From contig CAIJLV010000054.1 of the NCBI GenBank assembly GCA_903821635.1, positions 564 through 64,563 of the forward strand: 64,000 nt of DNA. The letters run 5' to 3'. Source of the DNA: an uncultured Verrucomicrobiota bacterium. Its GTDB lineage: Bacteria; Verrucomicrobiota; Verrucomicrobiia; Limisphaerales; UBA9464. The translations under genes were made by a program, and so were the position numbers. The first letter of the stretch is position 1; every line of letters starts with the position of its first letter. The notes under the pieces are model-generated. The model was not told the DNA's origin. It saw only the letters and a program-made list of their open reading frames with translations, and did not search any database. This document shows positions 26,425 through 62,700 of this stretch, one piece after another.

Positions 26425-29400
26425 TCAGGGCCACATGGGGCTGACGACTTGGAGGTAGCGAGTTTCGCCGGGCCCGGTGAGGGGCACGTCAATGATTCGC
26501 CCCGCGGTTCCGGCTGGCACGTCGAGGACCTTGAGCCAAGCGCCGCTGGTGAGTTGGTCCCGGGCAAGGATCGTGTAGCTGACGCCGGCTTGGGTGGTGA
26601 AGCGCACTTGTGGGGGCGTTCCGGGAAGCACGCTGAGCACCACGGGCTCCGCGGTGGCTTCCGTCACGCTGACCTGCACCTCGTCCTCACCGGCGAGCAA
26701 CGAGTCGTTGACCCCAAACCGCAGGCGGTAAGTGCCGGCGAGGTCGAAGGTGACGATCGTCTGGGGCGAGTTCGGGGCGGTGAAGGTGGTGGTTCCAGGA
26801 CCGGAAACCTGCGTCCAAGTAAACGTGGGCACGCCGGGCGGCGAGGGCAGGCCGTCATCGGTGAAGGTGGCGGTGAGCAAGAGGGGTTCACCCACCGTCG
26901 TGGTGCGGTCGGAGCCGGCACCGGCCGTCGGCCCGGTGTTGCCCGGCAGGCGTTGGCCCGTGAGGGTCAGGTCGAAGCTGAGATCGGACGAACCGCCGCC
27001 ACTTTGGTGCACCTCCACGGCCAACACGTTTTCGCCTTCCAGCAAGGGGCCGAGATCGATCGGGCTTTCGAAGAATGCACTTTCGTCGGCACCCCCCACG
27101 GCGGAGTTGGCCAGCGAATTATAGGTGAGCGTGCCTTCCGGGAGGTTGCTGCGAAAGATTTCCACCCCGTTCAGGTAAACTGCCGCGCCGTCATCGCGGA
27201 GGACTCCGAGTTTTAGCGACTGCATGCTGCTGGCGGAAAGGACGTTGAAGCGGGTGCGGAAATAGGTGGTGGGGTATTTGTTGCCGGCGTCCGGGCCAAA
27301 CCCGATCACGGTCGTTTCATCGGAGTCGCCAAAGCCCAGTTGGGCTCGGCCGGCCGGCCAAGCGCTGTCATTGAACGACGGCGCTCGCCAAGCGGTGCCC
27401 TGATCCACGCCCGTGTCGAGATAGCGCCAGAGGGAGCCGGCCGCCAACAGGGTCACCTCGCCGGCGGAGCGGGTCACGCTCACCAGCAGGTCGTCGCTGC
27501 TGGCCAATTCACCGTCACTGACCGTGACGCGGAGGCCGAACAAGCCAGTGCCCGGGACCGCCACTGTCGTGTTCGCCGCGTTGCGAGCCCCAAAGACCAC
27601 GCCCGCCGGGCCGCTGATCTGGGACCAAGAGTAACTCAGCGGTTCACCGGGTTGGCCGTCGTCTGTGGCGGTGGCGGCAACTGGTAGGGTGACGGGGAAG
27701 GCGGCTTCGACCAAATCACGATCCGGACCGGCGTCAGCAACGGGCGGGCGATTGGCGCGGTTGTCAAAGCCGGGCGAACCGCCCAGCGGACTGGCGCGCC
27801 ACGCGGCGGGATCATCGCCGTAGCGGACCGGAATTCGGCGCTCAAGCGTGGCGCCGAGGCCGGCGGCGGCGGTCGGCCACGGTGCCTGATCGCGGTAGCG
27901 CACGGAATCCACGACGAGATAAGGCACGACGGTGACGGCTTGCCCCGTCGAGTTGGTCGTGAAGTCCGGGCTGTCTGGCCGCTGCAATTCCAAGCGTTCG
28001 CCCCCATCCTGCAAGTTGCCGAGGAACGGGCCAAACACGGGCACCGCCGCGGGGATGCCGTAGCGGGACCGAAACAGCGTTGGATCACCCGCCGTCACGA
28101 CGGCGAAGCCTCGGGCGGGCAGCAGCGCGCCGGCGGGGAATTCGAAGTCGAGGCCGGCCACGCGCCAGCGATGGGTGGGAAAAGCCGGATCAAACAGCGG
28201 CACGGCGGCGTCCGTCAGATTGTGCAGTTCCACAAATTCCACGTCGCCGGCTCGCGGATGGTAATTGAACTCGCTGATGACGACCGGGCTGAGGGCCGGG
28301 CCGGCATTGGCAGCGCCGAAGGTGCGTGCCGCCTGGGTTGGGAACTGGAGTTCGCCCACGCTGTTCGTGTAGCGGCCGAAGGAGTCGCCGTTGGCGGCGG
28401 CCGGAAAGCTGAAGCCATCACTGTAGCCGGTCAGCGTGCCGGCGGCGTTGGCACTGAACAGCCACACCTGTTCACCGTGCGAGCTGAAGTTGAAACGGTT
28501 TGGACTCCCGGCTTGATTGAAGTCCGCTTCGGTCAACACGAGGTAGCCGCCGGCGGGAATGACCGTGTCGTTCGGAAGCCGGAATTGGTTGGGCACCCGG
28601 GCGTCGTCGGTCAGGAACCAGCCCGAGATTTCGGCCACCTCCGCGGTCGGGTTGTGGAGTTCGACGGAATCGAACAGCGGCGGGTCGGTGTGGGTGAGCA
28701 ATTCATTGATGACGACGCGCGGAATAGCACCCACCGGATCATCGCTGCCCGGCGAGCCGCCGGCTTGTGCACTGGCCCGCCAGTGGGTCGCGACGTTGGG
28801 GTCGGGGTTGGCGTTCGGATTCGTCGGCACGAGGGAGAAGCCCCCGCCGTCGGCACTCGCCGGCCACGGCGCGGCATCGCCGTAGGTGACTTCGAAAATC
28901 GTTTCCCCGGTGGCGTGGCTGAGGGTGAGACGTTCGCCGCCGTTGGCGAGTTTACCCGCGTAAACTCCGGCGACGGGCACGGTGGGATGACGGTTGGTGA
29001 AGGCGTCGCGGTCGCTGACCAAGACGGCAAACGCGCCCGGAGCCAGGGCGCTGCCGCGGGGGAAGGTGAAGCTGAGGCCATTCGTGAACCCGACTCCGCT
29101 CAGGTCGAGTTCGGTGGCGCCGGTGTTCTTTAACTCGATGAATTCGAAGCGGTCGCCATCCACGTCGCCGACCGGCGGCGGGTTATACATCAGTTCGGTG
29201 ATGGCGAGCGTCCGCCACGTCTGGGCGAGGATGAAGTCGGCTTCGTTCAGGGCGCTCCAATTGGTGCCGTTCAAGGCGCGGGCTCTGACGAGCACGCTCT
29301 CGGTCAGGGGCAACACTAAGCCGCTGGGCCCGCTGCGGGCGGTCGGAGAGACGGCCCCGCCCAGCAAGCGCGGGTCCGACCCATCGGTCGTGTAATGGAG

Positions 29401-31650
29401 GGTGCCGACGGGGGCGGAGAGCGCGAGTTGGAAACCGTTCGAGAACACGCCGCCGTGACGGCTGAAGCCGGGGGCGGTGGTGGCGGGGTAGAGATTTTTG
29501 CTGCGGAGTTGATTGAGGACGTTGGCGGAGCGCTGGTTGAAATAGTTGCCCATGATCTCGTTTACGGAGCTGAGCCAGTTTTGGCGGGTCAGGGGGGCGG
29601 TGGGCCGCTTGGAGTCGCCCCACCGGGCCGACTCGGCGACGACCGCCGAATAAATCTGGTTGGTGCGGGCACCGAAACGGGCGCGGGCGGCCTCAGGGGT
29701 CAGGGCACCGCCGTTGAAGAAGTGGGCCTGCACGCGATCGGCGACGCGGAGGCGGAATTCGGGGTTGGCGCTGAGCTTCTGCCAGATCCACTGCGGGTTG
29801 CTTTTACTCACGCCGGTGTCGCCCGAAGAGAAGGGGCCAGTGCGGTTTTGGGTGACTTCGAGGAGGGTGTGTTCGGCGTCATGCGAAGTGAAACGGAAGC
29901 CCCCGTAGGCGCCGCTGCGATTGCGCTGGCCATACCAGTTGTTGGGCGAGGAATTACCGAGGAAGTTGGAGATCGGGGCGTCGAGGTTACCGCCGAAGAG
30001 GATGACCAGCATGTAGTCGATGAGGTTGTCCACATCGAGCAGGTTTTCGTAGGCGGGATTGGGCGTGCCGTCGGCGTTGCGGCCCTCGATTTTGAAGTAG
30101 GCGGCGTTGCTGACGAAGCCGGAGCGGCCGGCGTTGTAGAGCCGCGTCCAGGCCTGCATGTCGCCGTCGGTGGCGTTGAGGGTGTAGGGGCCGGCTTCGA
30201 CTTTGATGACGTCCCAGTCCTCCTTGTTGCCGCCGTAATAAGTGCTGGAGTAGGCGGCTTCGGGGCGTTCGCAGGTGTTATAAAGCCCCCAATACTGGCC
30301 GTTAATGTAGAGATGGTAGTAGTTGCCGCGCTCACCCTGCCGGCCCATCGCGAGCTGGGTGTCGCGGCTGAATTGGTCGCGGATGAAGACGCCGGTGCTA
30401 TCGCCTTGGAAGCTCCAAGAATAGTTCTGGAAGGTGCGCAGATCGAGTGCGTCGAACTCGTCGGCGCCTTGGTCGCCAAAGAGCGGATATTTGAGCTTCG
30501 AGTCCCCGTATTCCTCGCGGAAGAAGAAGCGCAGGGCGTGCTTGGGGTTGTCGGTGCTGCGCGAAAAACCGCCGCGGATGCGGATGCCGGCGTTGACCTG
30601 GAAACCGTTTTTGCCATCGGGCTGCATCAATTCCAGTGAAATGGGGCGTTCCCAAGCACGTCCGTCTTGGCCGGGGTTGGCGTAGATGCCGGTCGAGGCG
30701 TTGAAGAGGTGGTTCAAATCCGTCACCACGCTGAAGGAGGGCAGCGACTTTAGGGCGGGGATGATTTCGTCCCGGTAGAGAGCTGAGTTTACGATGTCCG
30801 GATCCATGCCGTAGTCGCGCACGTTGAACCCCCAAGACGCGGGCCAGCCGGGTGGGGCGACGCCATTGGTGGCCTGCCGGATGACGTCCGCCAGAAACAG
30901 ATAGGTGTGCGTGTCTACGCCTGACGGTTGAAGGCCGGCCTTAAAGGCCGCCGCCCGCACGATGGCGGTGCCGCTCAGAGAAATCGGACCGGCGTAGGTG
31001 AAGCCGTTGTTCAAGCTCGGCGGCGTGCCGTTGGTCGTGTAGCGGATCGTCGCGCCTGCGGTGGCGGTGCTGATCACCAAATCGAACGCCTGCTCGTAGA
31101 AGCCGCGGTCGTGGCTGAATTTGGTGTCGGCCACGAAATCCGCAAAGCCGCCGGTATTGGCCAAGCCCGGCGAGGGCGGGGAGAAGAAGTAGCGTTGGCC
31201 GGCTCGGGTGCCGAACGAGATGTCCGTCTTTTGGGCGGGGTATTCCGGGGCAAACTCGGTGGCTGGCACGGATGAATCAGGCGGAAACAGGGCGAGGTAT
31301 TCCCCATTGGCCGCGAGGCTGAAGCTGGTGTGCAACTGGGCGCCCGCTTGGGCCCGGTCCTTGCCGGAGGCGAACACCACCAAAAAGGCACCGGCATTCA
31401 GGTTGGTGGCGGGGAACCGCCATTTGGCCGGCAGCGCGGGGTCGTCGGTAAGCGACCAGTCTTGGAGATTCACCCTGCTGGCTGAGGTGTTTTGCACCTC
31501 GATCCAGTCGGAGAATTCGCCCTCCTCATCCGCCCTTTGGCTGTTGTTACTGGCGAGAAATTCAGTGAGGGCAACCTGCGCCTGCCCGGAAGCCAGCAGG
31601 CTCAGGGCGGCAAAACAGGTCAGCAGGCGGCGAAGAAACAGACGGCTCAT
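26425..31650 (-). CDS. Large secreted CotH-kinase / lamin-tail-domain protein with Ig/PKD-like modules
   Basis: Three or more LTD starts (LTEFLASN, ITELMYNP, INELLTH, ISEFNYHP), YTTNGTPP and YTTDGSDP modules, CotH-like core (IRIRGG, YINGQYWGLY...ER, NNWY, HDAE). Signal peptide from ATG 31650. Confidence 0.88.
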   Translation of the reverse strand: MSRLFLRRLLTCFAALSLLASGQAQVALTEFLASNNSQRADEEGEFSDWIEVQNTSASRVNLQDWSLTDDPALPAKWRFPATNLNAGAFLVVFASGKDRAQAGAQLHTSFSLAANGEYLALFPPDSSVPATEFAPEYPAQKTDISFGTRAGQRYFFSPPSPGLANTGGFADFVADTKFSHDRGFYEQAFDLVISTATAGATIRYTTNGTPPSLNNGFTYAGPISLSGTAIVRAAAFKAGLQPSGVDTHTYLFLADVIRQATNGVAPPGWPASWGFNVRDYGMDPDIVNSALYRDEIIPALKSLPSFSVVTDLNHLFNASTGIYANPGQDGRAWERPISLELMQPDGKNGFQVNAGIRIRGGFSRSTDNPKHALRFFFREEYGDSKLKYPLFGDQGADEFDALDLRTFQNYSWSFQGDSTGVFIRDQFSRDTQLAMGRQGERGNYYHLYINGQYWGLYNTCERPEAAYSSTYYGGNKEDWDVIKVEAGPYTLNATDGDMQAWTRLYNAGRSGFVSNAAYFKIEGRNADGTPNPAYENLLDVDNLIDYMLVILFGGNLDAPISNFLGNSSPNNWYGQRNRSGAYGGFRFTSHDAEHTLLEVTQNRTGPFSSGDTGVSKSNPQWIWQKLSANPEFRLRVADRVQAHFFNGGALTPEAARARFGARTNQIYSAVVAESARWGDSKRPTAPLTRQNWLSSVNEIMGNYFNQRSANVLNQLRSKNLYPATTAPGFSRHGGVFSNGFQLALSAPVGTLHYTTDGSDPRLLGGAVSPTARSGPSGLVLPLTESVLVRARALNGTNWSALNEADFILAQTWRTLAITELMYNPPPVGDVDGDRFEFIELKNTGATELDLSGVGFTNGLSFTFPRGSALAPGAFAVLVSDRDAFTNRHPTVPVAGVYAGKLANGGERLTLSHATGETIFEVTYGDAAPWPASADGGGFSLVPTNPNANPDPNVATHWRASAQAGGSPGSDDPVGAIPRVVINELLTHTDPPLFDSVELHNPTAEVAEISGWFLTDDARVPNQFRLPNDTVIPAGGYLVLTEADFNQAGSPNRFNFSSHGEQVWLFSANAAGTLTGYSDGFSFPAAANGDSFGRYTNSVGELQFPTQAARTFGAANAGPALSPVVISEFNYHPRAGDVEFVELHNLTDAAVPLFDPAFPTHRWRVAGLDFEFPAGALLPARGFAVVTAGDPTLFRSRYGIPAAVPVFGPFLGNLQDGGERLELQRPDSPDFTTNSTGQAVTVVPYLVVDSVRYRDQAPWPTAAAGLGATLERRIPVRYGDDPAAWRASPLGGSPGFDNRANRPPVADAGPDRDLVEAAFPVTLPVAATATDDGQPGEPLSYSWSQISGPAGVVFGARNAANTTVAVPGTGLFGLRVTVSDGELASSDDLLVSVTRSAGEVTLLAAGSLWRYLDTGVDQGTAWRAPSFNDSAWPAGRAQLGFGDSDETTVIGFGPDAGNKYPTTYFRTRFNVLSASSMQSLKLGVLRDDGAAVYLNGVEIFRSNLPEGTLTYNSLANSAVGGADESAFFESPIDLGPLLEGENVLAVEVHQSGGGSSDLSFDLTLTGQRLPGNTGPTAGAGSDRTTTVGEPLLLTATFTDDGLPSPPGVPTFTWTQVSGPGTTTFTAPNSPQTIVTFDLAGTYRLRFGVNDSLLAGEDEVQVSVTEATAEPVVLSVLPGTPPQVRFTTQAGVSYTILARDQLTSGAWLKVLDVPAGTAGRIIDVPLTGPGETRYLQVVSPMWP

Positions 31651-31798
31651 GGCGCAAATCACGTGATGGAGACCTTCTAAATTGAGCAAATTCCGGGCCG
31701 ATTAGCAATTTTGTCGTCGGTTAATCAGGCCGAACCAACCGTCGAAATCAGCTCCGCCGTCGATCGGAGGGGTGAGCGGGAATTGGGGGGGACATAGA

Positions 31799-31814
31799 TA
31801 CGTAAATATACGTA
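31799..31814. promoter_or_regulatory. TACGTA-N4-TACGTA box, copy 1
   Basis: TACGTA aata TACGTA, ending 54 nt before ATG 31868. Confidence 0.7.
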
Positions 31815-31867
31815 GAGGGTTGATTATGAGTCGTCACTGCGGGCTTGCCCCCCAAGGTGTCAGCGAC

Positions 31868-34800
31868 ATGAGGCTCCGCTTGATTCGTCGGTTGTTGGGG
31901 TTTGGTTCGTTGACCGTCGCGGCCTTGGCCCAATCGCCGGGTTCCCTAGACACCAACTACGTGACGCTGCCCGGCACGGATTCCACGCCAAACTTCGTGG
32001 TTCCGCTCGCCGCCGGCAGGGTCATGACCGGCGGCAGCTTCACGAACTACGGCGGCAGCGGCCGGGCGGGATTGGTGCGCCTGAATGCCGACGGAACCGT
32101 GGACACTACCTTCGCGTTGCCGGCGCCGAAGTCCGTTTCGCCGCCCATCGTCTTCAACGGCACGGTGCTCTTTGCCGGCTCGACCAATGCGGGGAACATC
32201 CTCGGTGCGGCGGTCCGGCCGGACGGGCGCACGGTGTTCTACGGGCAATTCACCCGCCTCGGGACGGTGGACAATACGAACAACCTCGCCTTGGCCAACG
32301 CCGACGGTTCGCTGGCGCCGTTCACGCCGAACCTTGCCTTGGTGACGCGGGCCAGCGTGCTGAATGGACCCGGCGACAGTGTCTATGTCGGCGGTGCCTG
32401 GAACGTGGTGGATGCCGCCAAGCCGGTGATCCAGCGCCTGAAGGCCGACGGCTCGAACGATGCGACCTTCGTCGGGCCGACGCCGGCTTCGCTCGGCTAT
32501 GCGGCCGGACAGGTCAGCACCCTGCTCCGTGGTCCCGGAGATACGCTCTACGCTGTCATCATCTCGACCACGCAGGAGGTGATCCGCCTGACGGCCACCG
32601 GTGCGCTCGACGCCACGTTTGCCGACGGGGGCCGGGCCGCCGGCAGCTTTTCCACGACCCGGTTTGCCGGCACCCCCAGCGGCCAGCTGGTGCTTAGCGG
32701 CACCGGCCTCTACCGCGGCACGGCGCGTGTGAGTTCCCTGACCCGGCTGACGCTGGATGGGGCAATTGATGTCACTTTTGTTCCGCCCGCCGGCATCACC
32801 CTGAGCAGCGAAATCGGCGTGCAGGCGGACAACAAGGTGGTGGCGCTGGACGTGCCCGGCACGGTGGCGGCCCGTTTCAATGAGAACGGCTCGCGCGATC
32901 CCGGTTATGTCGATCCGGGTAAGGTGAAGCTGCCGGTGGTCGCTGCCTTCGACATGGCGATCGGCCCGGACGGTTCCGCTTTTGTCGCCGGGTTGTTCTA
33001 CAACGCGCAGTTCCAGCAGTTTAATGGCGTCTTCCACCTCCTAGGTGATCCCAACACCGCCCCGACCATCGCCACCCAACCGCTGGCGCAGACCAACACG
33101 CTGGGCGCACGCACCCGCTTCACTGTCACGGCGCAAGGCGCGGCGCCTTTGAGTTACCAATGGTTTCGCGGAACGACGCTGATTCCCGGGGCGACCGCCG
33201 CCGAATTGATCCTGCCCGTGACGGCGGTGGCGGATGACGCGGACTTTCACTGCGTGGTATCGAACAGCCTTGGCTCCACGCCGAGCGCCGCGGTTCACCT
33301 GACCCTGCTCGATCCGATCCCGGGCACGGTCCATCGCGAGACGGACGTGCCGGTGGGTCCCAACGATGAAGTCCGCGACCTCGCCTTTGATGCGGCCGGT
33401 GGCCTGGTGGCGAGCGGCCGGTTCTTGAAATGGGACAACACGGGCCGCGCCCACCTCGCACGGCTGCTGCCCGGCTCGGAGGACCTTGATCCGGCCTTGA
33501 GCCCCACCCCGCAGTCCACCGCGAACGGAAGCCACGTGCAGGTGTTGCCGCTGGCCGACGGCAAGGTGTTCGTGGCCGGTCTGGCCGGGGTCAGCTACAA
33601 CGGCAAGAACCACGAGGGGATCGTCCGCTTCAACGCCGACGGCTCGGTGGATACCACCTTCAATCCCACCGGCTCGGGCGGCTCCCTGACCATTTCAAGC
33701 GTGAGTGACAATAGCTCGCTCGTGGCGGTGGGAGCGGACGGCAAGGTGGTGCTCGCCGCGCAGACGTGGAACGACGAAAACGTCGTCGTTTCGTTCGTTG
33801 GTTCGTATATCCGCCTGAACGAGAACGGCACCCGGGACACCAGCTTCGCGCTGCGCGGCTCCAGTTACTTCGTGACCACCACGGTCATCACCGCGCTGCC
33901 CGATGGGCGTTATCTCGTGGCGGGAACCACCAACAGTGTGGGCTCCGCCTTCACCGGCGTGCTCCGCCTGAATGCCGACGGCACGGTGGACCGGACCTTC
34001 CAGACCGCCAGTCCCTACACGCTGGGCGCCGGGGTGAATGACCTCCTCGTGCAACCCGACGGACGCATCCTGGTGGCGGGCACCTTCAACGTCCGGAACG
34101 ACCTGACCCTTGGCCTCATCCGCCTGCTGCCGGATGGCCGGCTCGACCCGACCTTCAATGGTGTGCCCCAATTGTCGCAGTCGCCGAACTTCAGCCGCGG
34201 CGACGTGCGCCGCCTCGCGTTGCAGGCCGACGGCCGGATCGTAGCACTGGCTCGTCCGCTGAACGGAACCTTCCCGACGGCCAACGTGGTGCGCTTCTGG
34301 CCCAGCGGCGCGCTCGATCCGGAGTTTCAGGTGGCGACCAATTTGAGCCGCAACGGCAACCCGATCCTGTTCGCCGTTGCGGCGCGCCCGGACAACGCGC
34401 TCTTCGTGGGCGGCAACTTCACCGAGTTCTCCGGGTTTCCGCGCAAGAGTTTCGTCCGCCTCAACGGCGGTCCGCTGCGTCCCACGCCGGCGGCGCCGAC
34501 CATCGCCAGCCAACCCGCCCGCGTCGTGGCCAAGGTCGGAACCAACGTTACCTTCACGATCGTTCCCGGCGGCGCCGGTCCGTTCCAATTCCAGTGGCGG
34601 CGTAATCTCGCGCCCGGCTCCACGAACTTCACCGACATCCTCGGTGCCACCAACGCCAGCCTCACGGTGAACAACCTGCGGCTCACGCCGACGGACGCGG
34701 GCCTGTTCCAGTGTGGCGTCGTGAATCCGGGCGGCTCGGTTTACAGCGCCGTCATCCCGCTGTTGGTTGAGCCGGACCCCGCGTCGCCGGGGCAGGTGGA

Positions 34801-36004
34801 CCCCAGTTTCGTGCCCACGGTGGTGCTCGACCGGAGGGTTCAGCAGATGGCCGTGAATCCGGATGGCTCCGCTTACGCTGTGGCCGGCGGTATCTTGGTG
34901 CGCCTGTTCGAGGATGGCACCCGCGACACGACCTTCACCTCGCCCGCGGACCTGTTTGTGCCGGGTGTGGGCGGCATCTCGGTTGTGCGCCGGCAGCCTG
35001 ACGGCAAAATCTTGGTCGGCGGCGCGTGGAAAGACGGCGCGTTGGCGCGCCTGCTGCCCGACGGCAGTTACGATCCGTCCTTTGTCCGGGGCAATGGCTT
35101 CACCGCCAATTCCCGGATCTCGCTGATCGAACTCCAAAGCGACGGAAAGATCCTGGTCGTGCTGCCGCAGGGCGGTCAGTTCCGGAACGTGGCTGGGAAG
35201 ACCGTGTCGTCCCTCGCACGATTCCTGCCCGACGGAACGCTGGACGACACTTTCCAGTCCCTGGACCTGATCGCAGCGCTCCCCGGCATCGGAACTAACC
35301 CGGGCGCCTTGACCGGGCTGCGGGTGCTCGACGATGACCGGCTTTACCTCGGCGGCATTTTCACCTCGGTGCAGGGCGTGGCGCGCTTCGGCGTGGCGCG
35401 GTTGGACGCCGCCGGTTCGCTCGACACGACCTTCGTGCCGCCGACCAACGGTTTGGTCACCATCGGGTTTGGTTCGATGGGATTCTACGCCCTCGGGCCC
35501 GTTACCCCGGACGGCGGCCTCTACATCTTCGGTCGCTTCACCCAGCCCACGCGAACCGCGCTGCGGCTGCGCCCCGACGGGACGGCTGAAGCCGGTTTCC
35601 TCGTCGCCACCAGTGACGAAATCGAAGCCGGTGTCCTGCAAGCCGACGGCAAGCTGATCTTCAGCCACAGCGGCGTGATTGAACGGGTCAACCCCGACGG
35701 CACGACCGACGCCGCGTGGAATAAGACCGGGGCCTTCAACGTGGAAATGACGATCCTGCCCGACGGCAAACTGCTCGCCGGTGGCAGCCGCTTCTTCACC
35801 GGGATCGGCCCGGCGACGGTTGCTCCGGAAGTGAACTTCACCCTCACGCCGGACGGCCTGACCCTCGCGTGGCCGGCTGGTTACCAACTGCAACGTGCCA
35901 AGACGCTGTCGCCGCCGGACTGGCAGGACCTGGCGAATCCGTCGCCGTTCACCGTGCCGCTGGGCGGGCCGGGCGAATTCTTCCGCGTGGTGCCGGCGCC
36001 GTGA
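31868..36004 (+). CDS. Secreted delta-60 repeat (DUF5122-like) protein with two Ig domains, paralogue 1
   Basis: Repeated RLNADGTVDTTF / QPDGRILVAG units; Ig-like PTIATQP...YQW...C; signal peptide MRLRLIRR. Confidence 0.9.
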   Translation: MRLRLIRRLLGFGSLTVAALAQSPGSLDTNYVTLPGTDSTPNFVVPLAAGRVMTGGSFTNYGGSGRAGLVRLNADGTVDTTFALPAPKSVSPPIVFNGTVLFAGSTNAGNILGAAVRPDGRTVFYGQFTRLGTVDNTNNLALANADGSLAPFTPNLALVTRASVLNGPGDSVYVGGAWNVVDAAKPVIQRLKADGSNDATFVGPTPASLGYAAGQVSTLLRGPGDTLYAVIISTTQEVIRLTATGALDATFADGGRAAGSFSTTRFAGTPSGQLVLSGTGLYRGTARVSSLTRLTLDGAIDVTFVPPAGITLSSEIGVQADNKVVALDVPGTVAARFNENGSRDPGYVDPGKVKLPVVAAFDMAIGPDGSAFVAGLFYNAQFQQFNGVFHLLGDPNTAPTIATQPLAQTNTLGARTRFTVTAQGAAPLSYQWFRGTTLIPGATAAELILPVTAVADDADFHCVVSNSLGSTPSAAVHLTLLDPIPGTVHRETDVPVGPNDEVRDLAFDAAGGLVASGRFLKWDNTGRAHLARLLPGSEDLDPALSPTPQSTANGSHVQVLPLADGKVFVAGLAGVSYNGKNHEGIVRFNADGSVDTTFNPTGSGGSLTISSVSDNSSLVAVGADGKVVLAAQTWNDENVVVSFVGSYIRLNENGTRDTSFALRGSSYFVTTTVITALPDGRYLVAGTTNSVGSAFTGVLRLNADGTVDRTFQTASPYTLGAGVNDLLVQPDGRILVAGTFNVRNDLTLGLIRLLPDGRLDPTFNGVPQLSQSPNFSRGDVRRLALQADGRIVALARPLNGTFPTANVVRFWPSGALDPEFQVATNLSRNGNPILFAVAARPDNALFVGGNFTEFSGFPRKSFVRLNGGPLRPTPAAPTIASQPARVVAKVGTNVTFTIVPGGAGPFQFQWRRNLAPGSTNFTDILGATNASLTVNNLRLTPTDAGLFQCGVVNPGGSVYSAVIPLLVEPDPASPGQVDPSFVPTVVLDRRVQQMAVNPDGSAYAVAGGILVRLFEDGTRDTTFTSPADLFVPGVGGISVVRRQPDGKILVGGAWKDGALARLLPDGSYDPSFVRGNGFTANSRISLIELQSDGKILVVLPQGGQFRNVAGKTVSSLARFLPDGTLDDTFQSLDLIAALPGIGTNPGALTGLRVLDDDRLYLGGIFTSVQGVARFGVARLDAAGSLDTTFVPPTNGLVTIGFGSMGFYALGPVTPDGGLYIFGRFTQPTRTALRLRPDGTAEAGFLVATSDEIEAGVLQADGKLIFSHSGVIERVNPDGTTDAAWNKTGAFNVEMTILPDGKLLAGGSRFFTGIGPATVAPEVNFTLTPDGLTLAWPAGYQLQRAKTLSPPDWQDLANPSPFTVPLGGPGEFFRVVPAP

Positions 36005-36176: not shown

Positions 36177-39100
36177 GTGAGGATTTCAGCCTTGGTTTCA
36201 TTCTTGGTCGGCTTGCAGTTTGCGTTGCCGGTGGTGGCGCAGCAGCCGGGGTCGTTGGACACCAACTATGTGGCGGTGGCCGGCACCGATGTGGCCCCCA
36301 ACATTCTAGCCCCGCTGGCTGACGGTCGGCTTTACGTGGGTGGCTCGTTTACCAATTACGGCGGCGCTGGCCGGGCCCAGATGGCGCGGTTGCTGCCGAC
36401 GGGCCAGGTGGACACCAGTTTCACCCTGCCGCCGCTCCGCGTGATCAACGCGGCTGTGATCTTCAACGGGCAGGTGCTTGTGCCCGCCTCCACCAATGTC
36501 GGCAATGTGGGCGCCATTCTGCCATTGCCGGATGGCCGCGCGGTGATCGCCGGCAAATTCAATCACTTGGGCGCCACGCCGGCCCGGGGCTTGGCCTTGT
36601 TGAACTTGGATGGGTCGCCGGCGGTCACGGCCTTCGACTTCGAAACCATCGAGCCGGAGGCGTTGCTCGCCGGCCCGGGCGGAACCTTCTACGCGGGTGG
36701 GAAAGGGAATCTAGTGTCCCAGCGGCTGCCGTTGCTCCGCTTCCGGCCCGATGGTTCCCGCGATCCCAGCTTCACCCCGCCGCTGCTCACGGAACTCGGC
36801 TATGCCAGTGCCAATCCGTTCATCCTCCGGGCGGGACCTGACGACACGCTTTACTCGATCACGGCCGCTGCGGTGGGCTTTACGCCGACCTCTGACATCG
36901 TGCGCCTGACCAGTTCCGGGGCGTTGGATTCCACCTTTGCCGGCACGGGCAAAGCTGGCATTCCGTTCGCCAATTTTTCCAGTTTTGTCACCGATGCGGC
37001 GGGGCGCATGACTTTCACCGGGGTCACTAGCTACCGCGGCGCCACGCTCACTCGGAAGATCAACCGGCTCACGCGGGATGGCAGTTTGGACGCCACGTAT
37101 CAGGTCGCATTGGATCCTGGATTTGGGGCGCGTGTGGTGGCGGTGCAGGCCGACGGCAAACTGCTCTATACCGGGGGCCAACTCCCCATCAACCGGCTCA
37201 AAGCGGACGGCACGGTGGATACCGCCTACGCCGATCCGGGCAAGGTGCCCGTGCCGCAGAATTTCTTGTCGTTGAGCCAGTTTGCGTTGGCCCAGGACGG
37301 AAGCCTGTTCGCGGGCGGTTTCACCTTTTCGAAGAGCTTTGCGCTGATCAATGGCGTCTATCATATCTTTGGCGATCCCAACTCCGCGCCGGTCCTCGCG
37401 GTCCAACCCGTGGCGCAGACTAATACGCTGGGCGCCCGCACGCGGTTTAGTGTCACGGCTCAGGGGGCGTCGCCGCTGACGTATCAATGGTTTCGAAACG
37501 GGGTGGCCATCGGTGGCGCCACTGAGAGTAACTTGATTCTGGAACCGACCACCGCCGCGGATGCGGCCGCCGACTTCCACTGCGTGGTCGCGAATAGCTT
37601 GGGGGCCGCGCCTTCGGAAACCGCCCGGTTGACGCTGCTGGAACCCGTCGCGGGCAACGTGTATCGCGAGACTGATCCGCCGACCGGGGCGAATTCCCAA
37701 ATCCTCGACCTGCAATTCGACGCCACGGGCGGCCTGATTGCCGCGGGCGGTTTCACCCAGTTCAACGGGACGAACCGCATCCGGATCGCCCGCTTGATCG
37801 ACCACGGTCGGCACGTGGACCCGGCGTATGATACTGCGACCCTGAACGATTTAAGTCTGGTGCAGCACGTGCTGCCGCTCCGCTCGGGCAAGGTGCTGGC
37901 GCTGGGCAATTTCGGCGTCACCTACAACGGCGTGCAGCACAACGATGCGGTGCGGTTGCACCTCAACGGTGCCCTCGATACCACGTTCAACCCCACGGGC
38001 AGGGGCGGTTTGTCGGGCTCCCGCTTTTCCGAGGGCCCGGGTGGGGAACTGCTGGTGGCGACGGGAAGGTGGAACGATGAGTTGCTCCCGTTCGCGTTTG
38101 GCCGCCTCAGCGCCGAGGGGGTGCGCGAAGCTTCCTTCGTGCCTTCGCCCGCGTTCTTCCCGGGCGGACTCGTGCTGGCTTTGCCCGATGGTAAGGTGCT
38201 GGTCGGCGGTCGGACCAACAGTGCCGGTAGTTCCAGCGGCGTGCTGCGGTTAAACGCGGACGGCTCGCAGGATGGGAGCTTTTACCGGGGACTACAGCCG
38301 GATTTCACGGCGCTGACCCCGACGGCCCTGTTGCGGCAGCCGGACGGCAAGATCTTGGTCGCCGGCACTTTCAACCGGCTCGTCGGTTTCCAGAACTATA
38401 CGCTCGGCGTCATCCGTCTGCTGGAGCACGGGCAACTCGACCCGAGCTTCAATCCGGTCCCCGCGTTGTCCTCCCTAGTCGGCTTCCCGGTGCAGCGGAT
38501 CGCGCTACAGGCGGACGGGCGGATCCTGATTCAAGGCGCGTTCACTAGCGTGGGCGGTTTCCCGCGCCCGGGGGTTGCCCGGCTCTGGTCCAACGGCGTG
38601 GTGGACATCGAATTCGCCACCGGTTCGCCGCGGCGCACCTACCTCTCCGGCAATCCCTTGGGCACCGTGTCCGCGCTCGCGGTGTCGCCTACCAACGAGA
38701 TTTTCCTCGGCGGCGACTTCCACCAATTTGACGGATTGCCGCGAACCAATTTCGTGCGGGTCCTTGGCGGACCGCTGCGCGCGCCGCCGGCGCCGCCGAC
38801 CCTCGCCAGCGTGCCGGCGCGCGTGGTGGCGGCCACTGGCACCAACGTGACGCTGACAGTCGTGCCGGCGGGAGAAGGCCCCTTCCAGTATCAATGGCGG
38901 CGCAACTCGCAAACCGGCTCGTCCCTGTTCACTGACATCCTCGGCGCGACCAACGCCAGCCTGTCGTTGGCCAACCTCCGGGTGGAGGATTCCGGTCTGT
39001 TCCAAGTAGCGGTGGTGAATCCAGGCGGAGCGATCTTCAGCGCCTACCTCCCGCTGCTCGTGGAGCCAAGCCCGGTGGTGCCGGGAACGATTGACCGTTC

Positions 39101-40388
39101 CTGGGTGGCCCAAGGTTTTCTGCGGGGCGTTTCGGCCGTGGCTCCGGATGGCTTGGTCTATGGGGCCCGGGCCGAGGGCGTGACGCGCCATTTCGAGGAC
39201 GGCACGCCGGATCTCAGTTTCGTGACACCGGCCGATCTCGTGCGGGCGGACAGCCTCGTGGACAACAGCATCACGGCGCTATTGCGGCAACCCGATGGCC
39301 GGCTGCTGCTCGTCGGTCGACTCTCGACGGACGGCGGTCCGTGCAATGTCATCGGCAACACGTGTTTCGAGCCCAAGCGCGGGCTGGTGCGCCTACTGCC
39401 CGACGGTAGCTACGATCCGGACTTCATTCAGACCAACTCCTTCTCGGGCGACGCGCAACTTAAGCCGGGCGCGCTGCTCTTGCAGACCGATGGAAAGATC
39501 TTGGTCGGCGGCGCGTTCCAAAACTTCTCCGGGCGCACGGTCACCGGGTTGGTGCGTTTTGGCGCGGACGGTGCCTTCGACGACTCCTTCGTGGTGAATC
39601 TGGAGAGCGACTTGACGAATCCCCCGCGGACGCTGCCCGGCACTGCAAGCGTGCTGCTCCCATTGCCCGACGGCCGCTTCTACGTGGGCGGCAGCTTCAC
39701 GAAAGTGCAGGGCGTGGCCTGCAGTGGCATCGCCCGGTTAAACGCGAACGGCTCGCTCGACACCGGCTTCGTTCCGCCCGCGATGGCGAACGTCGGCCTC
39801 GGTCAAAGTGGCAGCCTGACGCTGTATGGCGTCGGCCCGGTCACGCCCGAAGGCGGCCTCTATGTCTTCGGTCGTTTTCAGTGGGTGGCGGGCGGTCCGA
39901 TTTACGCTGCCCTGCGGTTGCGGCCCGACGGTTCGGTGGATGACACCTTCAAGGTCACCAGCGACTTCGCGATCAACACCGGAGCGGTGCAAACCGACGG
40001 CAAGCTCATCATCACCGGCCAGTTCACCCAGTTGAACGGCCAGTCCCGCGGTGGCTACGCCCGGCTGGACCTGGATGGCTCGACGGACGCCAGCTTCACG
40101 TTGGGCACAGCCTTCGGCGTGGGCGTGCCCCTGACGCTCCTGCCCGACGGCAAACTGCTGGCCGGGGGCACGCGCAGCTTCACCGGGGTGGCGGTCGAAG
40201 CGGTAGCCGCGGAAGTCGATTTCACCCTGACGCCTACCGGTCTCGAACTGACTTGGCCGGCGGGCTACCAGTTGCAACGGGCCACGACCCTAGCCCCCGC
40301 GGACTGGCAAAACGTGGCCAATCCTTCGCCGTTCACCGTGCCGCTCAGCGGGGTTGGAGAATTCTTCCGCGTGGTGCCGGCGCCGTGA
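36177..40388 (+). CDS. Secreted delta-60 repeat protein with two Ig domains, paralogue 2
   Basis: Same architecture as 31868-36004; collinear throughout. Confidence 0.9.
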   Translation: MRISALVSFLVGLQFALPVVAQQPGSLDTNYVAVAGTDVAPNILAPLADGRLYVGGSFTNYGGAGRAQMARLLPTGQVDTSFTLPPLRVINAAVIFNGQVLVPASTNVGNVGAILPLPDGRAVIAGKFNHLGATPARGLALLNLDGSPAVTAFDFETIEPEALLAGPGGTFYAGGKGNLVSQRLPLLRFRPDGSRDPSFTPPLLTELGYASANPFILRAGPDDTLYSITAAAVGFTPTSDIVRLTSSGALDSTFAGTGKAGIPFANFSSFVTDAAGRMTFTGVTSYRGATLTRKINRLTRDGSLDATYQVALDPGFGARVVAVQADGKLLYTGGQLPINRLKADGTVDTAYADPGKVPVPQNFLSLSQFALAQDGSLFAGGFTFSKSFALINGVYHIFGDPNSAPVLAVQPVAQTNTLGARTRFSVTAQGASPLTYQWFRNGVAIGGATESNLILEPTTAADAAADFHCVVANSLGAAPSETARLTLLEPVAGNVYRETDPPTGANSQILDLQFDATGGLIAAGGFTQFNGTNRIRIARLIDHGRHVDPAYDTATLNDLSLVQHVLPLRSGKVLALGNFGVTYNGVQHNDAVRLHLNGALDTTFNPTGRGGLSGSRFSEGPGGELLVATGRWNDELLPFAFGRLSAEGVREASFVPSPAFFPGGLVLALPDGKVLVGGRTNSAGSSSGVLRLNADGSQDGSFYRGLQPDFTALTPTALLRQPDGKILVAGTFNRLVGFQNYTLGVIRLLEHGQLDPSFNPVPALSSLVGFPVQRIALQADGRILIQGAFTSVGGFPRPGVARLWSNGVVDIEFATGSPRRTYLSGNPLGTVSALAVSPTNEIFLGGDFHQFDGLPRTNFVRVLGGPLRAPPAPPTLASVPARVVAATGTNVTLTVVPAGEGPFQYQWRRNSQTGSSLFTDILGATNASLSLANLRVEDSGLFQVAVVNPGGAIFSAYLPLLVEPSPVVPGTIDRSWVAQGFLRGVSAVAPDGLVYGARAEGVTRHFEDGTPDLSFVTPADLVRADSLVDNSITALLRQPDGRLLLVGRLSTDGGPCNVIGNTCFEPKRGLVRLLPDGSYDPDFIQTNSFSGDAQLKPGALLLQTDGKILVGGAFQNFSGRTVTGLVRFGADGAFDDSFVVNLESDLTNPPRTLPGTASVLLPLPDGRFYVGGSFTKVQGVACSGIARLNANGSLDTGFVPPAMANVGLGQSGSLTLYGVGPVTPEGGLYVFGRFQWVAGGPIYAALRLRPDGSVDDTFKVTSDFAINTGAVQTDGKLIITGQFTQLNGQSRGGYARLDLDGSTDASFTLGTAFGVGVPLTLLPDGKLLAGGTRSFTGVAVEAVAAEVDFTLTPTGLELTWPAGYQLQRATTLAPADWQNVANPSPFTVPLSGVGEFFRVVPAP

Positions 40389-40409
40389 GGGTCGGGCTCC
40401 ATCCCGATC

Positions 40410-50896: not shown

Positions 50897-50948
50897 ATTC
50901 TGCACAACAACTTTGCGGCGGGCGCATTGGTCCTGTCAGACTCCCGAG

Positions 50949-53848: not shown

Positions 53849-54258
53849 TGCACAGCCACCGGGTCTTCCTCGATTCGTCGTTCTGGATCGCCTTCCGCGA
53901 TGCGCGCCAGACGCATCACGCCCGGGCGCGCGACTGCATCGCGGCGCTGTTCCGGGAGCGGACGCATTTCGTGAGCACGCCGTTCGTGTTTGCCGAGACC
54001 CATGCGACGTTCGCCCGGTCGCAGGTGGTGCGGGAGAAGATCATCGCCGATTTCTGGGAGAACCCGCTGCTGCATTTCGCGGAGGTGACCGACGCCGACC
54101 ACCGCGCGGCCATCCAATTGCTGCGGCAGCACGCGGACAAGTCGTATCCCTTCTGCGACGCCATTTCGTTTGTCGTGATGCGGCGCCTTGGCGTGAAGCG
54201 GGTCGCCGCCTTTGACGACCACTTCCGGCAGGTCGGCGGGTTCGAGGTCATTGGGTAA
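53848..54258 (+). CDS. vapC: PIN-domain toxin (VapC family)
   Basis: VFLDSS, E, FCDA, AFDDHF acidic tetrad. Confidence 0.88.
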   Translation: MHSHRVFLDSSFWIAFRDARQTHHARARDCIAALFRERTHFVSTPFVFAETHATFARSQVVREKIIADFWENPLLHFAEVTDADHRAAIQLLRQHADKSYPFCDAISFVVMRRLGVKRVAAFDDHFRQVGGFEVIG

Positions 54259-54279
54259 TCAGGGAGTCCCCTGCGCGTT

Positions 54280-55785: not shown

Positions 55786-55858
55786 CGTCACCAGCAAATG
55801 CCCGATGACGACGAAACCGCACGGGAAAAGTGCGCGGTGCCGGCGCGTGACCGGTGAG

Positions 55859-56848: not shown

Positions 56849-56895
56849 CGTCGCCGTTGAATTTTCGAGAGCCGGGCCGAACTCGCCAGCCGGAA

Positions 56896-57057
56896 TCAAC
56901 TCCCGGTCGTCGCCCGCGGCCCCTTCCCGCACCGGCAGGCGGCGCTGCAGAACTTAACGTTGGCCCAGTCGCGTTCCCATTTCTTCCGCCAAGCAAACGG
57001 CCGGCCACACCCGGCGCAGGTTTTTTCGGGCAGATGCTGTTTCTTTACGCCGCGCAT
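56896..57057 (-). CDS. DUF2256 family small cysteine protein
   Basis: [37 protein letters not shown], the C-terminal 53 aa of the track ORF 56896..57804; overlaps the photolyase stop. Confidence 0.9.
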
Positions 57058-59494: not shown

Positions 59495-59704
59495 TGATAT
59501 TAGCCGACGGTAGAGTGGTTTCTCGATCCGGCAACCGGTCGGCGATTTTCCGGCGCCGGCGGTTGCGGAACGCCAATCAAAGCCAAGTTTCCCGAGGCCT
59601 TGCTCCGGTCCAATTGGGGAGTCGTTCCGCCGCTTGCGCCCCGACGGGCAGATCGCGCTGGTGCGGACTGGCCGCGAAAAGCTCGGCGTAACCAAGCCGC
59701 CCCG

Positions 59705-62700
59705 TCACGGCCGGCGGATCCGGAAGAACCGTGGCCCGGGAGTGTCCGTCGCCTGTTCGGGCAATTCGACTGGGCGACCCTCGAACCAGCCGGAGCTGAC
59801 CGTTCGCCACTCGCCCAGCTGCGCCGAACTTTCCAGCAGGAAAGGGGAGTCGGGTTCGCCCTGAGCCAGCAGGCGGATTCCGTTGATTCCGACCGTGGCC
59901 GTCAGCGCCAGCTCCGTCGCGGGCACCTCAGGTCCAAAGAGGTTGACTGAGATGGCGCCGACGCTGTTGTCGAAGCCGCCGACCGCAATCTCATAGGCAG
60001 TCCCGGCGTTGGCGGTCCAAGTGGCGGTGCTGGGCCCCGCGAATGAGCCGGTGTCATCATTGGCCGCCACGAGCGTGCGTTGGCCGGCGCTGACTGAATA
60101 AACGTGAACGACCGTGTCGAGGATCGAGCCGGAGGTGTTGACGGCAGCGGTCCCGCCGGCAAAAGCGTGCCAGCGCCACCAAAGGGTGCGGGTGCCGTCC
60201 AGGCCGGTGCCCGAGCCGGCGGTGGGCGCCGCCCCGACATTGCTCGCGAGCGTGGATTCCCGGCTCCCCCGCAGTCGGACGGCGAATTCCGGGGTGGAAT
60301 TGGTGGCCGGCAGCAGCGGGAGCAGGCGCAGGTGGGTCGGTCCGACCTCGCCCAAGGCCGTGGCGACCGCGATCAGGTAAGTGGCTCCCGCCGTTGCTGA
60401 AAACGCGCAGACGGAACCCAAACTGTTGCCCTGCCGATTGGCGGCGATGGCCTGGAGCGCATTGCCCTCGGCGGCTTGATAGACTGCAAGGACGGGCTGA
60501 AACCCAATGGCTTCGGTGTGGAGCTGGAACCAGCCGTCCGAAGGGGCCCGCCAACGTCTCCAGACGGAATGGCCGGCCAGCAGGCCGGCGTGCGCCGGTT
60601 CGTCGGGCTCAGTGGTGGCGCCAGCGGTCTGTTCCTCCCAAATAATTGATTCGCCGTGGAGCTCTCCCGCTTGCGCCCGGTCATCGTTCGGCGGTGCCGC
60701 ATTGAAATCGCCGAGCCAACTGACAAGGCCGATCTCCCCGCCGTAGTTTGAATCGACCGCGAGTGAGTAGGTTTCGCCGGCGCGGACCGAAAAACCGACT
60801 TCCCAATCCAGCGTGCTGGTCTTGAGCGGGACGGGTTCGAGGTTGGCGAGGTCGTTCCCGGCGTAAACCGCGAGGCGGTGGACTTGGTTGCCGATCGCCG
60901 GTTGGAGCTGCATCCAGCCGTTGGTTTCGGCGGTCCAAGCCCACCAAAGGGACCGATCCGCCGGCTGGTTTCCAGGGTGGGGTTCGGCCGCTTCCGCGGT
61001 GGCGAGGTGATTGGAGCCGACGAGCCACAGCCGGGGACCGTGCAGGCGGATTCGATCGGCGAACGCATCGTTGAACCGGCCGTCAAGCTGTTGGATGCCC
61101 AGCGAGTATTCACCGACCTGCCAAAGCCCACCTGCCACCCCGATCCAGTAGGTGACTCCGGCCTGGGCCTGAAAAGTCGGATTCCCGAAACCAGCCACGG
61201 AGACCAGCGACTCCGGCGTGGTGCCGGTGAAAACTCCGAAAGCATAGGGTCCGTCGGGGCGCTGCCTGACGGTGACTTGGGTCAGCGCTTCCGCGGGTGC
61301 CGTCCATTTCCACCACCTGGACCCGGCTTCGATGGAGTTGTAAATGCTTGGTTCGCCAGGTTCCACGGTGGCGCCGAACAGCGAGCCGTCGACCAAGACT
61401 GAGGGGCCGAAGAGTTCTGCGGCGGCGGCGAAGGCGTCGTTCTGGGGCAGGGGATACACGTGGAGAGTCAGCCCGCCGCCGGCCTCGACCAGCAGTTGAT
61501 ACTCGACGCCGGCCTCAGCGGTGAACGCGGTCGCGCCATTCCCGGCGGCGACTCGCACCAGTTGGCTCAGGCTGGAGCCCCGATACACGGCGACCAACGG
61601 CTTCTGGTTTTCCGCCAGTCCGCTCCAGACAAAAGTGCCGCTTCGGGGCGCCGTCCAAGTCCACCAGAAGGAGTCGCCAAAAACACGACCCTCATGGTTC
61701 GGTTCGCCGGCCTCGCGGGTTCCCGCCTGAAGTCGCGCGTTGAATCGAAGGTCGTCTCCTTGGAGGCGCGAGCGGCGGGCGAAATCGTCGTTGGGCGAAC
61801 TGGGGGTGAAGCTGAAATCATACCAGACTTCCAGCTTGGGGTTGTTGCCGGGCCCAGTGGCGATGCCCAGCCGATACGTTTCCCCCGCCTTCACTCGGAT
61901 GCGTCCGTCGCCGTCGGCGACTGGCTTTAGTCGGGCGACGCTCGGTCCCTGAAAGACGCCGGCGGCCCCCAAGGAGCCGTGGCCGACCTCCTCGACTGCA
62001 AGGTGGCCCGAAGCGGGAGCGGTCCAAGTCCACCAGCGGGATTGGCGGTAGCCGGTTCCCGGCAGGAACGGTTCCTCGAATTCGAGGGAATCGTCGGCAA
62101 AGCTGCCGCCGAGGCGAAAAGTGGGGCCCCGGACCTCGGTGGCGTTTTCGAAAAAGTCGTTGGCCGTGAGCGCTCCGATGACGTTGAGCTGGCCCGACCG
62201 CGGCCCCTGATTCGGCAACTGCCAGTCGGCTAGGGTGAGCTGGTAGACCCTTCCGGCGAAGGCGGAAAAGACGAAGGAACCTTCGCTGGAACTGCCCACC
62301 GGTTGCAGAGCCTCGATTGTTTCGCCCCGGTAGACGGCGACGAATCCCGGCGGTTCCCGCTGGATTCTCACCCAGCAATTACTCGGCGCCGTCCACGACC
62401 ACCAAATGCTGCTGGCGGTTCCCTCGCCGCCTTCGGGCCCGGCGCCTTCGGTGGTGCCGGAGAATCTGACGCTGCTGCCGGACAACGGGAGGCGGTTGGC
62501 GAAGTTGTCGTTCTCGGGTGGGGCGGGCAGGAACCGGTGGGCGATTTCGTAGTCCGGGAGCCCGCCGGGGGTTCTGATCATCGCGAGGTAGGTCGTCTCA
62601 CCGGCTCCGGTCGCGACGAGGAGTTCGGAACCACTGACGATCAGTGGGACTGGTTTTAAGTTCGCCAGCGAGTCGCCGCGGTAGGCGTTGAGCCGTAGTC

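Follow-up and report, generated by a model that had tools for sequence, protein, structure and literature searches.

Verrucomicrobiota, which are abundant in soil and water, encode many giant secreted proteins; to our knowledge, little has been established about how these bacteria bring proteins onto or past the outer membrane. The stretch of 64,000 nucleotides analysed here (the window) encodes six giant proteins of different types whose C-terminal ends look alike, which raises the question of whether these ends are one domain and, if so, what such a domain does for an exported protein. An initial annotation, made from the sequence alone, had proposed that they are one domain and that it may route its cargo to an export or anchoring machine.

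The six window proteins share a C-terminal domain

One CotH/LTD protein, three delta-60 (DUF5122) paralogues and two repeat proteins make up the set (Table 1), and the two repeat proteins have no good Pfam match. All six ORFs and their ends were found at the coordinates given in the initial annotation. Each end combines beta strands with a Trp, and a [FY][FYL][RQ] motif stands 4-7 aa ahead of the stop codon. The Sec-like signal peptides that it had noted on the five N-termini visible in the window were read again, together with a sixth outside the window, where the complete open frame of P0006 is 1967 aa on contig C54. The database copy of P0001 (P0300) has 1741 aa.

An HMM built from the six window tails matched further proteins of the genome, with a best E of 9.8e-9, and nearly all of these matches end 0-6 aa before the stop codon. 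A second HMM was built from 40 tails located elsewhere in the genome, without the window tails (leave-out HMM). It matched five of the six proteins, each at the extreme C-terminus (Table 1), and the reversed ORFs used as control gave 0 matches. The exception was the P0003 tail, which showed no match at E<1 and shares 75-77% identity with those of its two paralogues. Since P0003 falls below detection, the delta-60 tails are the most divergent members; in other genomes, delta-60 homologues have canonical RFYRV tails in this position. We concluded that the six tails are homologous beyond chance, and the claim of a common C-terminal domain is thereby confirmed.

Table 1. The six window ORFs and their C-terminal tail modules, with the leave-out HMM results
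Feature	Position	Strand	Remarks
P0001, CotH kinase-like / lamin-tail-domain / PKD exported protein	26425..31689	-	Probable start MSRLFL, 31650
P0001 C-terminal tail module	26428..26652	-	End ...TRYLQVVSPMWP; stop codon 26425-26427; E 2.4e-6, residues 1685-1751 of 1754
P0002, delta-60 (DUF5122) repeat protein with Ig domains	31772..36004	+	
P0002 tail	35777-36001	+	E 7e-3, residues 1353-1408 of 1410
P0003, delta-60 repeat protein	36177..40388	+	
P0003 tail	40161-40385	+	Modelled, pLDDT 84.7
P0004, delta-60 repeat protein	40574..44770	+	
P0004 tail	44543-44767	+	E 1.7e-3
P0005, repeat protein, 1990 aa	44924..50896	+	PxND...GEP...WW.W.AP modules, two Ig domains
P0005 tail	50669-50893	+	Modelled, pLDDT 85.9, six strands; E 4.4e-9
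P0006, second PxND-repeat protein	59705..64000	-	5' end beyond window
P0006 tail	59708-59932	-	E 3e-5

The tail is an all-beta module of about 60-70 aa with an invariant Trp, a near-invariant Arg and the ending [FY][FY]R-x3-4-Pro. The profile was obtained by fixed-length iteration and a curated alignment (A1) without any conserved stretch of 7-10 columns; free iteration led to a 140-column model that missed most of the window tails. When the six proteins were scanned against Pfam and NCBIfam at E<=0.01, no match fell on the tail, and no family was reported for four tails scanned alone against Pfam at E<=10. The earlier statement that the tail matches neither PEP-CTERM nor T9SS ends thus holds in these scans, which showed no other curated family on it either. 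An ESM Atlas query returned delta-60 clusters only (best score 0.85) and was uninformative. The titles and abstract openings retrieved with the motif words, with Verrucomicrobiota C-terminal sorting and with PEP-CTERM plus P-domain mentioned nothing on the module.

Copies of the tail in the genome

The genome is of soil-type Verrucomicrobia, 4.66 Mb in size and 87% complete. A search with a profile made from 46 tails detected 81 copies in 81 ORFs spread over 52 contigs, of which 71 (88%) end within 12 aa of the stop codon. The tail closes about 80 proteins, or about 2% of the proteome, and offers a practical marker for the exported and surface proteome that Pfam and NCBIfam lack. The end itself varies little: of the 71 terminal carriers, 57 have the FYR-motif Arg 4-5 aa from the protein end. 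Pro is the final residue of 48 of them, compared with 11.6% of 1839 control ORFs; a strand stop or a defence against carboxypeptidases would account for it.

The expectation that copies would be strictly C-terminal held for these 71 only. At least five copies lie at the mature N-terminus, straight after the signal peptide, and two are internal. Since the non-C-terminal copies are mostly directly behind the signal peptide, they too stand at an end of the mature protein. By a crude score, signal peptides were present in 45 of 69 tail carriers against 115 of 400 control ORFs, in agreement with the expected co-occurrence.

Cargo and exchange of end modules

Domain scanning of 60 carriers bore out the view that the tail is independent of its cargo. 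Among the cargo are CotH/LTD, S8, trypsin and M10 peptidases, PAP2, redoxin, LamG, beta-helix, Calx-beta, TIG, PQQ propeller, RCC1, tectonin and cohesin. In 66 scanned carriers the Ig_3, I-set, Big_9, PKD and LTD modules are internal, compared with the tail, which is terminal in 71 of 81.

The terminal tail is kept in 112 of 120 orthologues of the CotH/LTD protein P0001. Among 120 delta-60 homologues, retrieved through the region preceding the tail, 73 end in the tail, four (all from Bacteroidota) in the T9SS type A domain (PF18962) and about nine in an ...ELYELP module. Such swapping of ends, read from the sequences, is a 'choice of anchor' pattern. The tail hence sits where Bacteroidota use a proven sorting domain, which makes it an entry point to a partner in retention or export. 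DUF1501 and PSCyt2/PSD1 pairs were noted near carriers in 5 of about 23 paralogues against a background of 9%, an excess too weak to use.

Predicted fold and relation to fibronectin III

The models of the P0003 and P0005 tails are confident (Table 1), and by DSSP the tail has six strands (A, B, C, C', E and F) and no G strand. The VIA matches are mostly fibronectin III (FnIII) domains at Z 6.4-7.6, where the tool asks for Z 8, with 63-75 residues aligned at an rmsd of 2-3 A, and the alignments stop 15-18 residues short of the ends of single-domain FnIII chains. VIA scored Vpr highest (C-terminal domain, fibril form; Z 7.9), and many FnIII rows lie within 1 of this value. With Foldseek, the best values were E 4e-3, to a de novo Ig protein, and 0.22. 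The tail profile cross-matches annotated FnIII arrays and, at a marginal E of 0.0022, FN3con.

Judging from the models, the tail appears to be a fibronectin-III-like sandwich minus the last strand. It has in common with FnIII (Pfam fn3 clan) the strand order A-B-C-C'-E-F and the pattern L.W ... Y.L ... W ... Y/F-x-R-V. It differs in lacking strand G, with internal copies passing straight into linkers, in having no curated fn3-clan match in the scan of four tails described above, in its strong preference for chain ends, and in its invariant Trp after strand C and conserved terminal Pro. The conserved Trp, Arg and aromatic pair may be purely structural. Mostly internal matches and a collapse onto a characterised domain had been named in the initial annotation as findings that would speak against it. 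Both were seen in part, as the internal and N-terminal copies and as the cross-matches to FnIII arrays.

Distribution in the phylum

The tail is present in 40 of 41 relatives, with 23-141 profile matches per genome; the single relative without tails is G031. In a sample of 301 genomes of the phylum, 142 have it and 159 do not. Among representative proteins, 51,143 carry the module. In other organisms tandem arrays occur, with up to nine true tail copies per protein and proline (PPPP) linkers between them. Such arrays would suit a plain spacer or stalk as well as a handle.

Pairing of Big_9-plus-tail genes with a P-domain gene

What is new here is that one subclass of carriers, ending in Big_9 plus the tail, is paired with a gene for a P-domain protein that has a PEP-CTERM-like end. 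In the relatives, Big_9-plus-tail genes are almost always followed by such a gene (24 of 29 loci), and the same pairing was found for 4 of 4 strong matches of the family in other classes. All six paralogues of the family in this genome lie just downstream of a tail-bearing gene, and 8 of 9 upstream proteins have the Big_9-plus-tail end in common, although their N-terminal parts vary. The six window genes lack a neighbour of this family.

The family was not found in 14 of the 41 relatives, although 13 of these 14 have 23-141 tails each, and among 300 other genomes of the phylum, with eight candidates scored per genome, it was detected in just five. Since it is missing from many tail-bearing genomes, it cannot be a general receptor. 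For the Big_9-plus-tail subclass the gene order makes the downstream P-domain protein a candidate receptor, and the two form a concrete protein pair. This neighbour is the sole partner lead towards the export or anchoring machine of the initial annotation; the machine itself was not identified.

Possible role of the tail

The reading we favour, at a probability slightly below even (about 0.45), is that the tail is a surface-retention or docking handle for exported proteins. The tail would be a small non-catalytic domain that folds on its own and descends from the fibronectin-III fold; a short proline-containing linker would join it to one end of an exported protein, usually the C-terminus. After export by the Sec route it would hold a wide range of enzymes, lectins and adhesin-like proteins, unrelated to one another, at the cell surface by putative binding of a surface component, in the manner of dockerin or SLH modules; it would not serve as a signal that a pore reads for translocation. 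In the Big_9-plus-tail subclass, the component bound may be the PEP-CTERM-like P-domain protein encoded directly downstream. The dockerin-cohesin and SLH systems resemble the tail in that one small non-catalytic module ends many different secreted enzymes, and possibly in a many-to-few pairing, as a candidate anchored partner gene adjoins one subclass. They differ in that their fold and sequence are unrelated to those of the tail, and in that the candidate receptor here is absent from many tail-bearing genomes.

A wider proposal is that Verrucomicrobiota share, across the phylum, an undescribed system for surface display, with the tail as the handle of its cargo. After Sec export the open-edged six-strand domain, alone or as Big_9 plus tail, would dock onto surface-anchored receptors, of which the P-domain protein would be the first to be identified. 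We regard this extension as doubtful.

Alternatively, the tail could be inert, a stable Fn3-like cap or spacer closing many long surface proteins, with no part in sorting or binding. The generic fold and the contact of the profile with ordinary Fn3 arrays and FN3con agree with this, as do the beads-on-a-string arrays with proline linkers; the conserved residues would fit a core Trp-Arg pair, and any last domain is expected to end soon after its last strand. We think it somewhat unlikely, however, because the other Ig-like modules of the carriers are internal, because the tail is kept across the CotH/LTD orthologues and is exchanged for proven sorting domains in the delta-60 homologues, and because the genes of one subclass are coupled to that of a PEP-CTERM-like protein.

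A true secretion or sorting signal is an unlikely role for the tail. In that reading an outer-membrane translocon, either one of the secretins or one not yet described, would recognise the tail in the periplasm, and the tail might afterwards be removed, as happens to the T9SS C-terminal domain in Bacteroidota. The position and tightly set end of most copies, with the fixed Arg spacing and last Pro, and their presence on signal-peptide proteins would suit such a signal. The T9SS type A CTD (Por_Secre_tail, PF18962 / TIGR04183) is likewise a small beta-sandwich, about 70 aa long, that forms the extreme C-terminus of its proteins. A genome has tens to hundreds of such proteins, unrelated to one another and with signal peptides, comparable to the tens to more than 100 tail carriers, and the domain takes the place of the tail on the Bacteroidota delta-60 homologues. 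The tail differs from it in sequence, no match having appeared in either of the scans given above, and in standing also at the mature N-terminus, internally and in tandem arrays, whose up to nine true copies are not explained by a signal read at the C-terminus. Neither PF18962 nor SprA/Sov (TIGR04189, PF14349) was matched in this 87%-complete genome, but the control genomes were equally silent. As for secretins, the genome has seven secretin ORFs, but the tail-less G031 has secretins too; no carrier adjoins any of the seven or of the three exosortase genes, the nearest lying 8 kb away.

The PEP-CTERM/exosortase system is present in the same genome (four PEP-CTERM matches besides the three exosortases) and touches the tail through the neighbour of the Big_9-plus-tail subclass; the tail differs from PEP-CTERM in having no PEP motif, transmembrane helix, basic end or family match. 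The C-terminal signal of type 1 secretion is uncleaved and belongs to RTX-type cargo that has no N-terminal signal peptide, whereas the window tail proteins start with Sec-type ones.

Finally, the tails might join each other, or donor strands of other proteins, through the open edge left where strand G is missing, and assemble into fibres or a layer of mixed proteins. Two-copy complex predictions scored 0.00 and 0.01 against a mark of 0.42, which speaks neither for nor against self-association. With no G strand in the model, strand F would form an exposed edge at the chain end, and the top VIA match is a fibril form, though one within Z 1 of FnIII rows; we nevertheless hold this reading to be very unlikely, because array-internal copies are also without strand G and run on into linkers, so that the six-strand form seems complete in itself.

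The six tails are one domain

The six large open reading frames (ORFs) reported in the initial annotation are all present in the window where it had placed them, and the signal peptides of the window proteins are readable directly from the sequence. Pfam and NCBIfam identified P0002, P0003 and P0004 as delta-60 (DUF5122, TIGR02608) repeat proteins with Ig domains; the other three exported proteins are described in the table below. The last approximately 70 residues of all six proteins gave no Pfam or NCBIfam match, and four tails scanned by themselves matched zero Pfam families at E ≤ 10. When aligned, the final 75 residues of the six tails share one register; a Trp is invariant and the Arg within [FY][FY]R nearly so, and the alignment indicates that the six tails are one domain.

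The approximately 130-aa repeats of P0005 and P0006 follow the pattern PxND.F..A ... GEP ... S.WW.W.AP and match no Pfam family, save a weak PPC match (E 0.0011); they are an unnamed repeat family in their own right. The genes flanking the tail-bearing proteins (carriers) in the window belong to ordinary metabolism or are PSCyt/DUF1549-DUF1553/DUF1501 genes typical of the superphylum. PSCyt1/PSCyt2/PSD1 and DUF1501 gene pairs border the carrier cluster (window 21035-25653 and 50913-53399), and 5 of the ~23 PSCyt/DUF1501 paralogues genome-wide are no more than three genes away from a carrier, compared with a background of 9%.

Window proteins with their domains, and P-domain family members in the genome of the window (G000)
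Protein	Location	Strand	Features
P0001	window 26425-31689	minus	CotH, four lamin-tail domains, Fn3_assoc/CHB_HEX_C, PKD-like domains
P0005	window 44924-50896		~130-aa repeat modules, two Ig domains (Pfam)
P0006	window 59705-64000		~130-aa repeat modules, without solid Pfam match
P-domain family member	C136:2235-3032	-	
P-domain family member	C170:30304-30948	-	
P-domain family member	C163:26570-27172	+	
P-domain family member	C163:69780-70337	+	
P-domain family member	C163:74426-75085	+	
P-domain family member	C51:31430-32041	+	

A hidden Markov model (HMM) of the six tails was run over all stop-to-stop ORFs of 80 aa or more (28,518) in the genome, which comprises 4.66 Mb in 237 contigs and is 87% complete. 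The search recovered further proteins, and in nearly all of them 0-6 residues separate the match from the stop; iterating at fixed length yielded 60 matches, 54 of them ending within 10 residues of it. To avoid circularity, another HMM was built solely from 40 other tails of the genome; this model detected P0005 (E 4e-9), P0001 (2e-6), P0006 (3e-5), P0004 (1.7e-3) and P0002 (7e-3), each time at the very C-terminus, and had 0 matches in the reversed ORFs used as a control. P0003 scored above E 1, which makes the delta-60 tails the most divergent. Among 120 delta-60 homologues, retrieved via the region preceding the tail, 73 carry a clear terminal copy and about a dozen others have FYRV-like ends missed by the model.

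Copy number and position of the tail

The A1 profile, a curated alignment of 46 tails, found 81 copies in 81 ORFs of the genome, or about 2% of the crude gene count (roughly 3,500). The strictly C-terminal placement considered in the initial annotation does not hold there, since copies also occur behind signal peptides and two are truly internal, though in 71 of the 81 at most 12 residues separate the copy from the stop. Another five, aligned only in part, stop 13-38 residues short of the protein end, and three lie directly behind a signal peptide (residues 54-166 of open frames), as do three further copies from another HMM iteration. Almost all copies thus occupy one end of the mature protein, and that end is usually the C-terminus. 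In 57 of 71 carriers the Arg of FYR precedes the last residue by 4 or 5 positions, and the last residue is Pro in 48 of the 71, compared with 11.6% of 1,839 control ORFs; a Pro end was likewise observed in 78 of 120 CotH/LTD orthologues.

Of 41 genomes from the same order, 40 contain the tail, with 23-141 profile matches per genome; the exception is G031 (2.6 Mb, 94% complete), which has 0 tails. With 19 candidates scored per genome, a phylum sample contained it in 142 of 301 genomes; one family had it in 0 of 48, and one genus in 4 of 22, as single weak matches. Among 1.84 billion representative proteins there were 51,143 matches at E ≤ 1e-3. The 150 best representatives are all multi-copy (2-24 copies), an expected outcome given that scores are additive; in 86 of them one copy is terminal, and 51 of these 86 copies have a Pro end. 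Inspection of the best database matches revealed true copies, with the W and FYR, in arrays of 4-9 with a period of 70-90 residues and PPPP linkers. In a less biased set, 22 of 23 matches have a terminal tail. The named carriers are all Verrucomicrobia, and close orthologues come from sources named Pedosphaera, Limisphaerales, Verrucomicrobiales and Verrucomicrobiae.

Predicted fold

Models predicted from alignments reached pLDDT 84.7 for the P0003 tail and 85.9 (pTM 0.71) for the P0005 tail, which has six strands. Foldseek returned nothing below E 1e-3 for either model, the best values being 0.22 (P0003) and 4e-3, a de novo Ig protein (P0005). VIA-align gave Z up to 4.7 for P0003; for P0005 its top match was the C-terminal domain of Vpr in the fibril form (Z 7.9), followed by many FnIII domains (Z 6.4-7.6, rmsd 2-3 Å, 63-75 residues aligned), values in the range that the tool terms a common arrangement. 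The tail alignment stops 15-18 residues short of the ends of single FnIII chains (e.g. 3mpc_B, 7jgu_A, 5n48_B and 4wtx_A); the tail would therefore correspond to strands A to F, differing from FnIII, as modelled, by the missing G strand. The internal array copies likewise lack this strand. Against solved chains, the A1 profile matched FN3con (E 0.0022) and a CBM32 domain (E 0.005), and an annotated Fn3 array from Tepidisphaeraceae was among its best database matches. In our reading, the tail is a branch of the Fn3 fold that has diverged and lacks strand G, and it falls outside the curated libraries tested.

Cargo and possible role of the tail

A Pfam scan of 60 carriers revealed, besides peptidases, CotH/LTD proteins, PAP2/haloperoxidase-like proteins, a redoxin, a lipase and a multihaem cytochrome, together with LamG lectin, beta-helix, Calx-beta, TIG, PQQ propellers, RCC1, tectonin and cohesin; the peptidases were three S8 subtilases, one trypsin-like and one M10. 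Many carriers had no family. The carriers are spread over 52 contigs with 12 adjacent pairs, and 45 of 69 passed a crude heuristic signal-peptide score, compared with 115 of 400 long control ORFs. A literature search, judged from its listings, found no published account of the module.

The copies at the mature N-terminus and the arrays are difficult to reconcile with a strict C-terminal translocation signal. An inert spacer is hard to reconcile with the 88% terminal bias, given that these proteins have their other Ig-like modules in internal positions, with the retention of the tail in 112 of 120 orthologues, and with the other end modules found at the same place on homologues: 4 of 120 delta-60 homologues, all Bacteroidota, end in a T9SS type A sorting domain, and about 9 of 120 in a different module, ...ELYELP. 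Sorting and anchoring domains typically show such exchange on a single kind of cargo. The second recurrent delta-60 end reads ...G(S/T)AL(A/I)E(L/V)YE(L/V)P (database proteins P0262, P0263, P0278, P0281, P0284, P0287, P0297 and others; Opitutaceae in two source records).

A conserved two-gene unit

Analysis of neighbouring genes yielded a family of 240-300 aa proteins with a signal peptide and a conserved domain, whose sole Pfam match was the proprotein-convertase P domain (six of six scanned, E 1.8e-5 to 0.04, two above the cut-off). The C-terminus comprises VPEP, a hydrophobic stretch and RRR, and matched PF07589 (E 0.0025 and 0.011) and, weakly, several NCBIfam PEP-CTERM families. This P-domain/PEP-CTERM-like family is uncatalogued. 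All six paralogues in the genome lie directly downstream of a tail-bearing gene on the same strand, five of the upstream tails being detected by A1 and the sixth by a looser HMM. The family occurs in 27 of the 41 relatives, and in 24 of 29 fetched relative loci (family loci L103-L143), spanning 21 genomes, at least 11 genera and three families, the family gene is closely preceded by a terminal tail; the five misses were weak or domain-only matches, or lacked a detectable tail. In the phylum sample, with 8 candidates scored per genome, the family was found in five other genomes only, all with tails, and the strong matches from other classes have the same arrangement in four of four.

Eight of nine upstream proteins scanned contain a Big_9/cadherin-like domain plus the tail, while their N-terminal parts vary. 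The pair is thus a conserved two-gene unit, in which variable cargo with a constant Big_9 and tail end is followed by an exosortase-anchored-looking protein, and it would fit a model in which the tail cassette docks to a partner anchored at the surface. The Big_9 domain rather than the tail may be involved in the pairing, which cannot be general across carriers, because the family is missing from 13 many-tail relatives and adjoins none of the six window genes.

Three paralogous cassettes were observed on C136 (the whole contig, L101), C170 and C150. They encode a Kelch propeller, a pair of proteins lacking annotation (~600 and ~430 aa), a giant protein, likewise unannotated, of 2,690-3,041 aa, and small carriers of the tail; a P-domain/PEP-CTERM-like protein closes the cassette on C136 and C170.

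Search for an export or anchoring machine

The searches turned up no export or anchoring machine for the tails, and no secretion gene was found within the window. SprA and T9SS tails had no match in the genome, and the control genomes gave no match either. The genome encodes secretins in 7 ORFs and 3 exosortases, none linked to carriers, and secretins also occur in the tail-less G031. One secretin gene (C138:24327-37187, plus strand) has an open frame of 4,287 aa that begins like a secretin N-domain and has its secretin domain at residues 4059-4224, thus carrying ~3,700 extra residues; a 3,956-aa counterpart is present in the relative G016.
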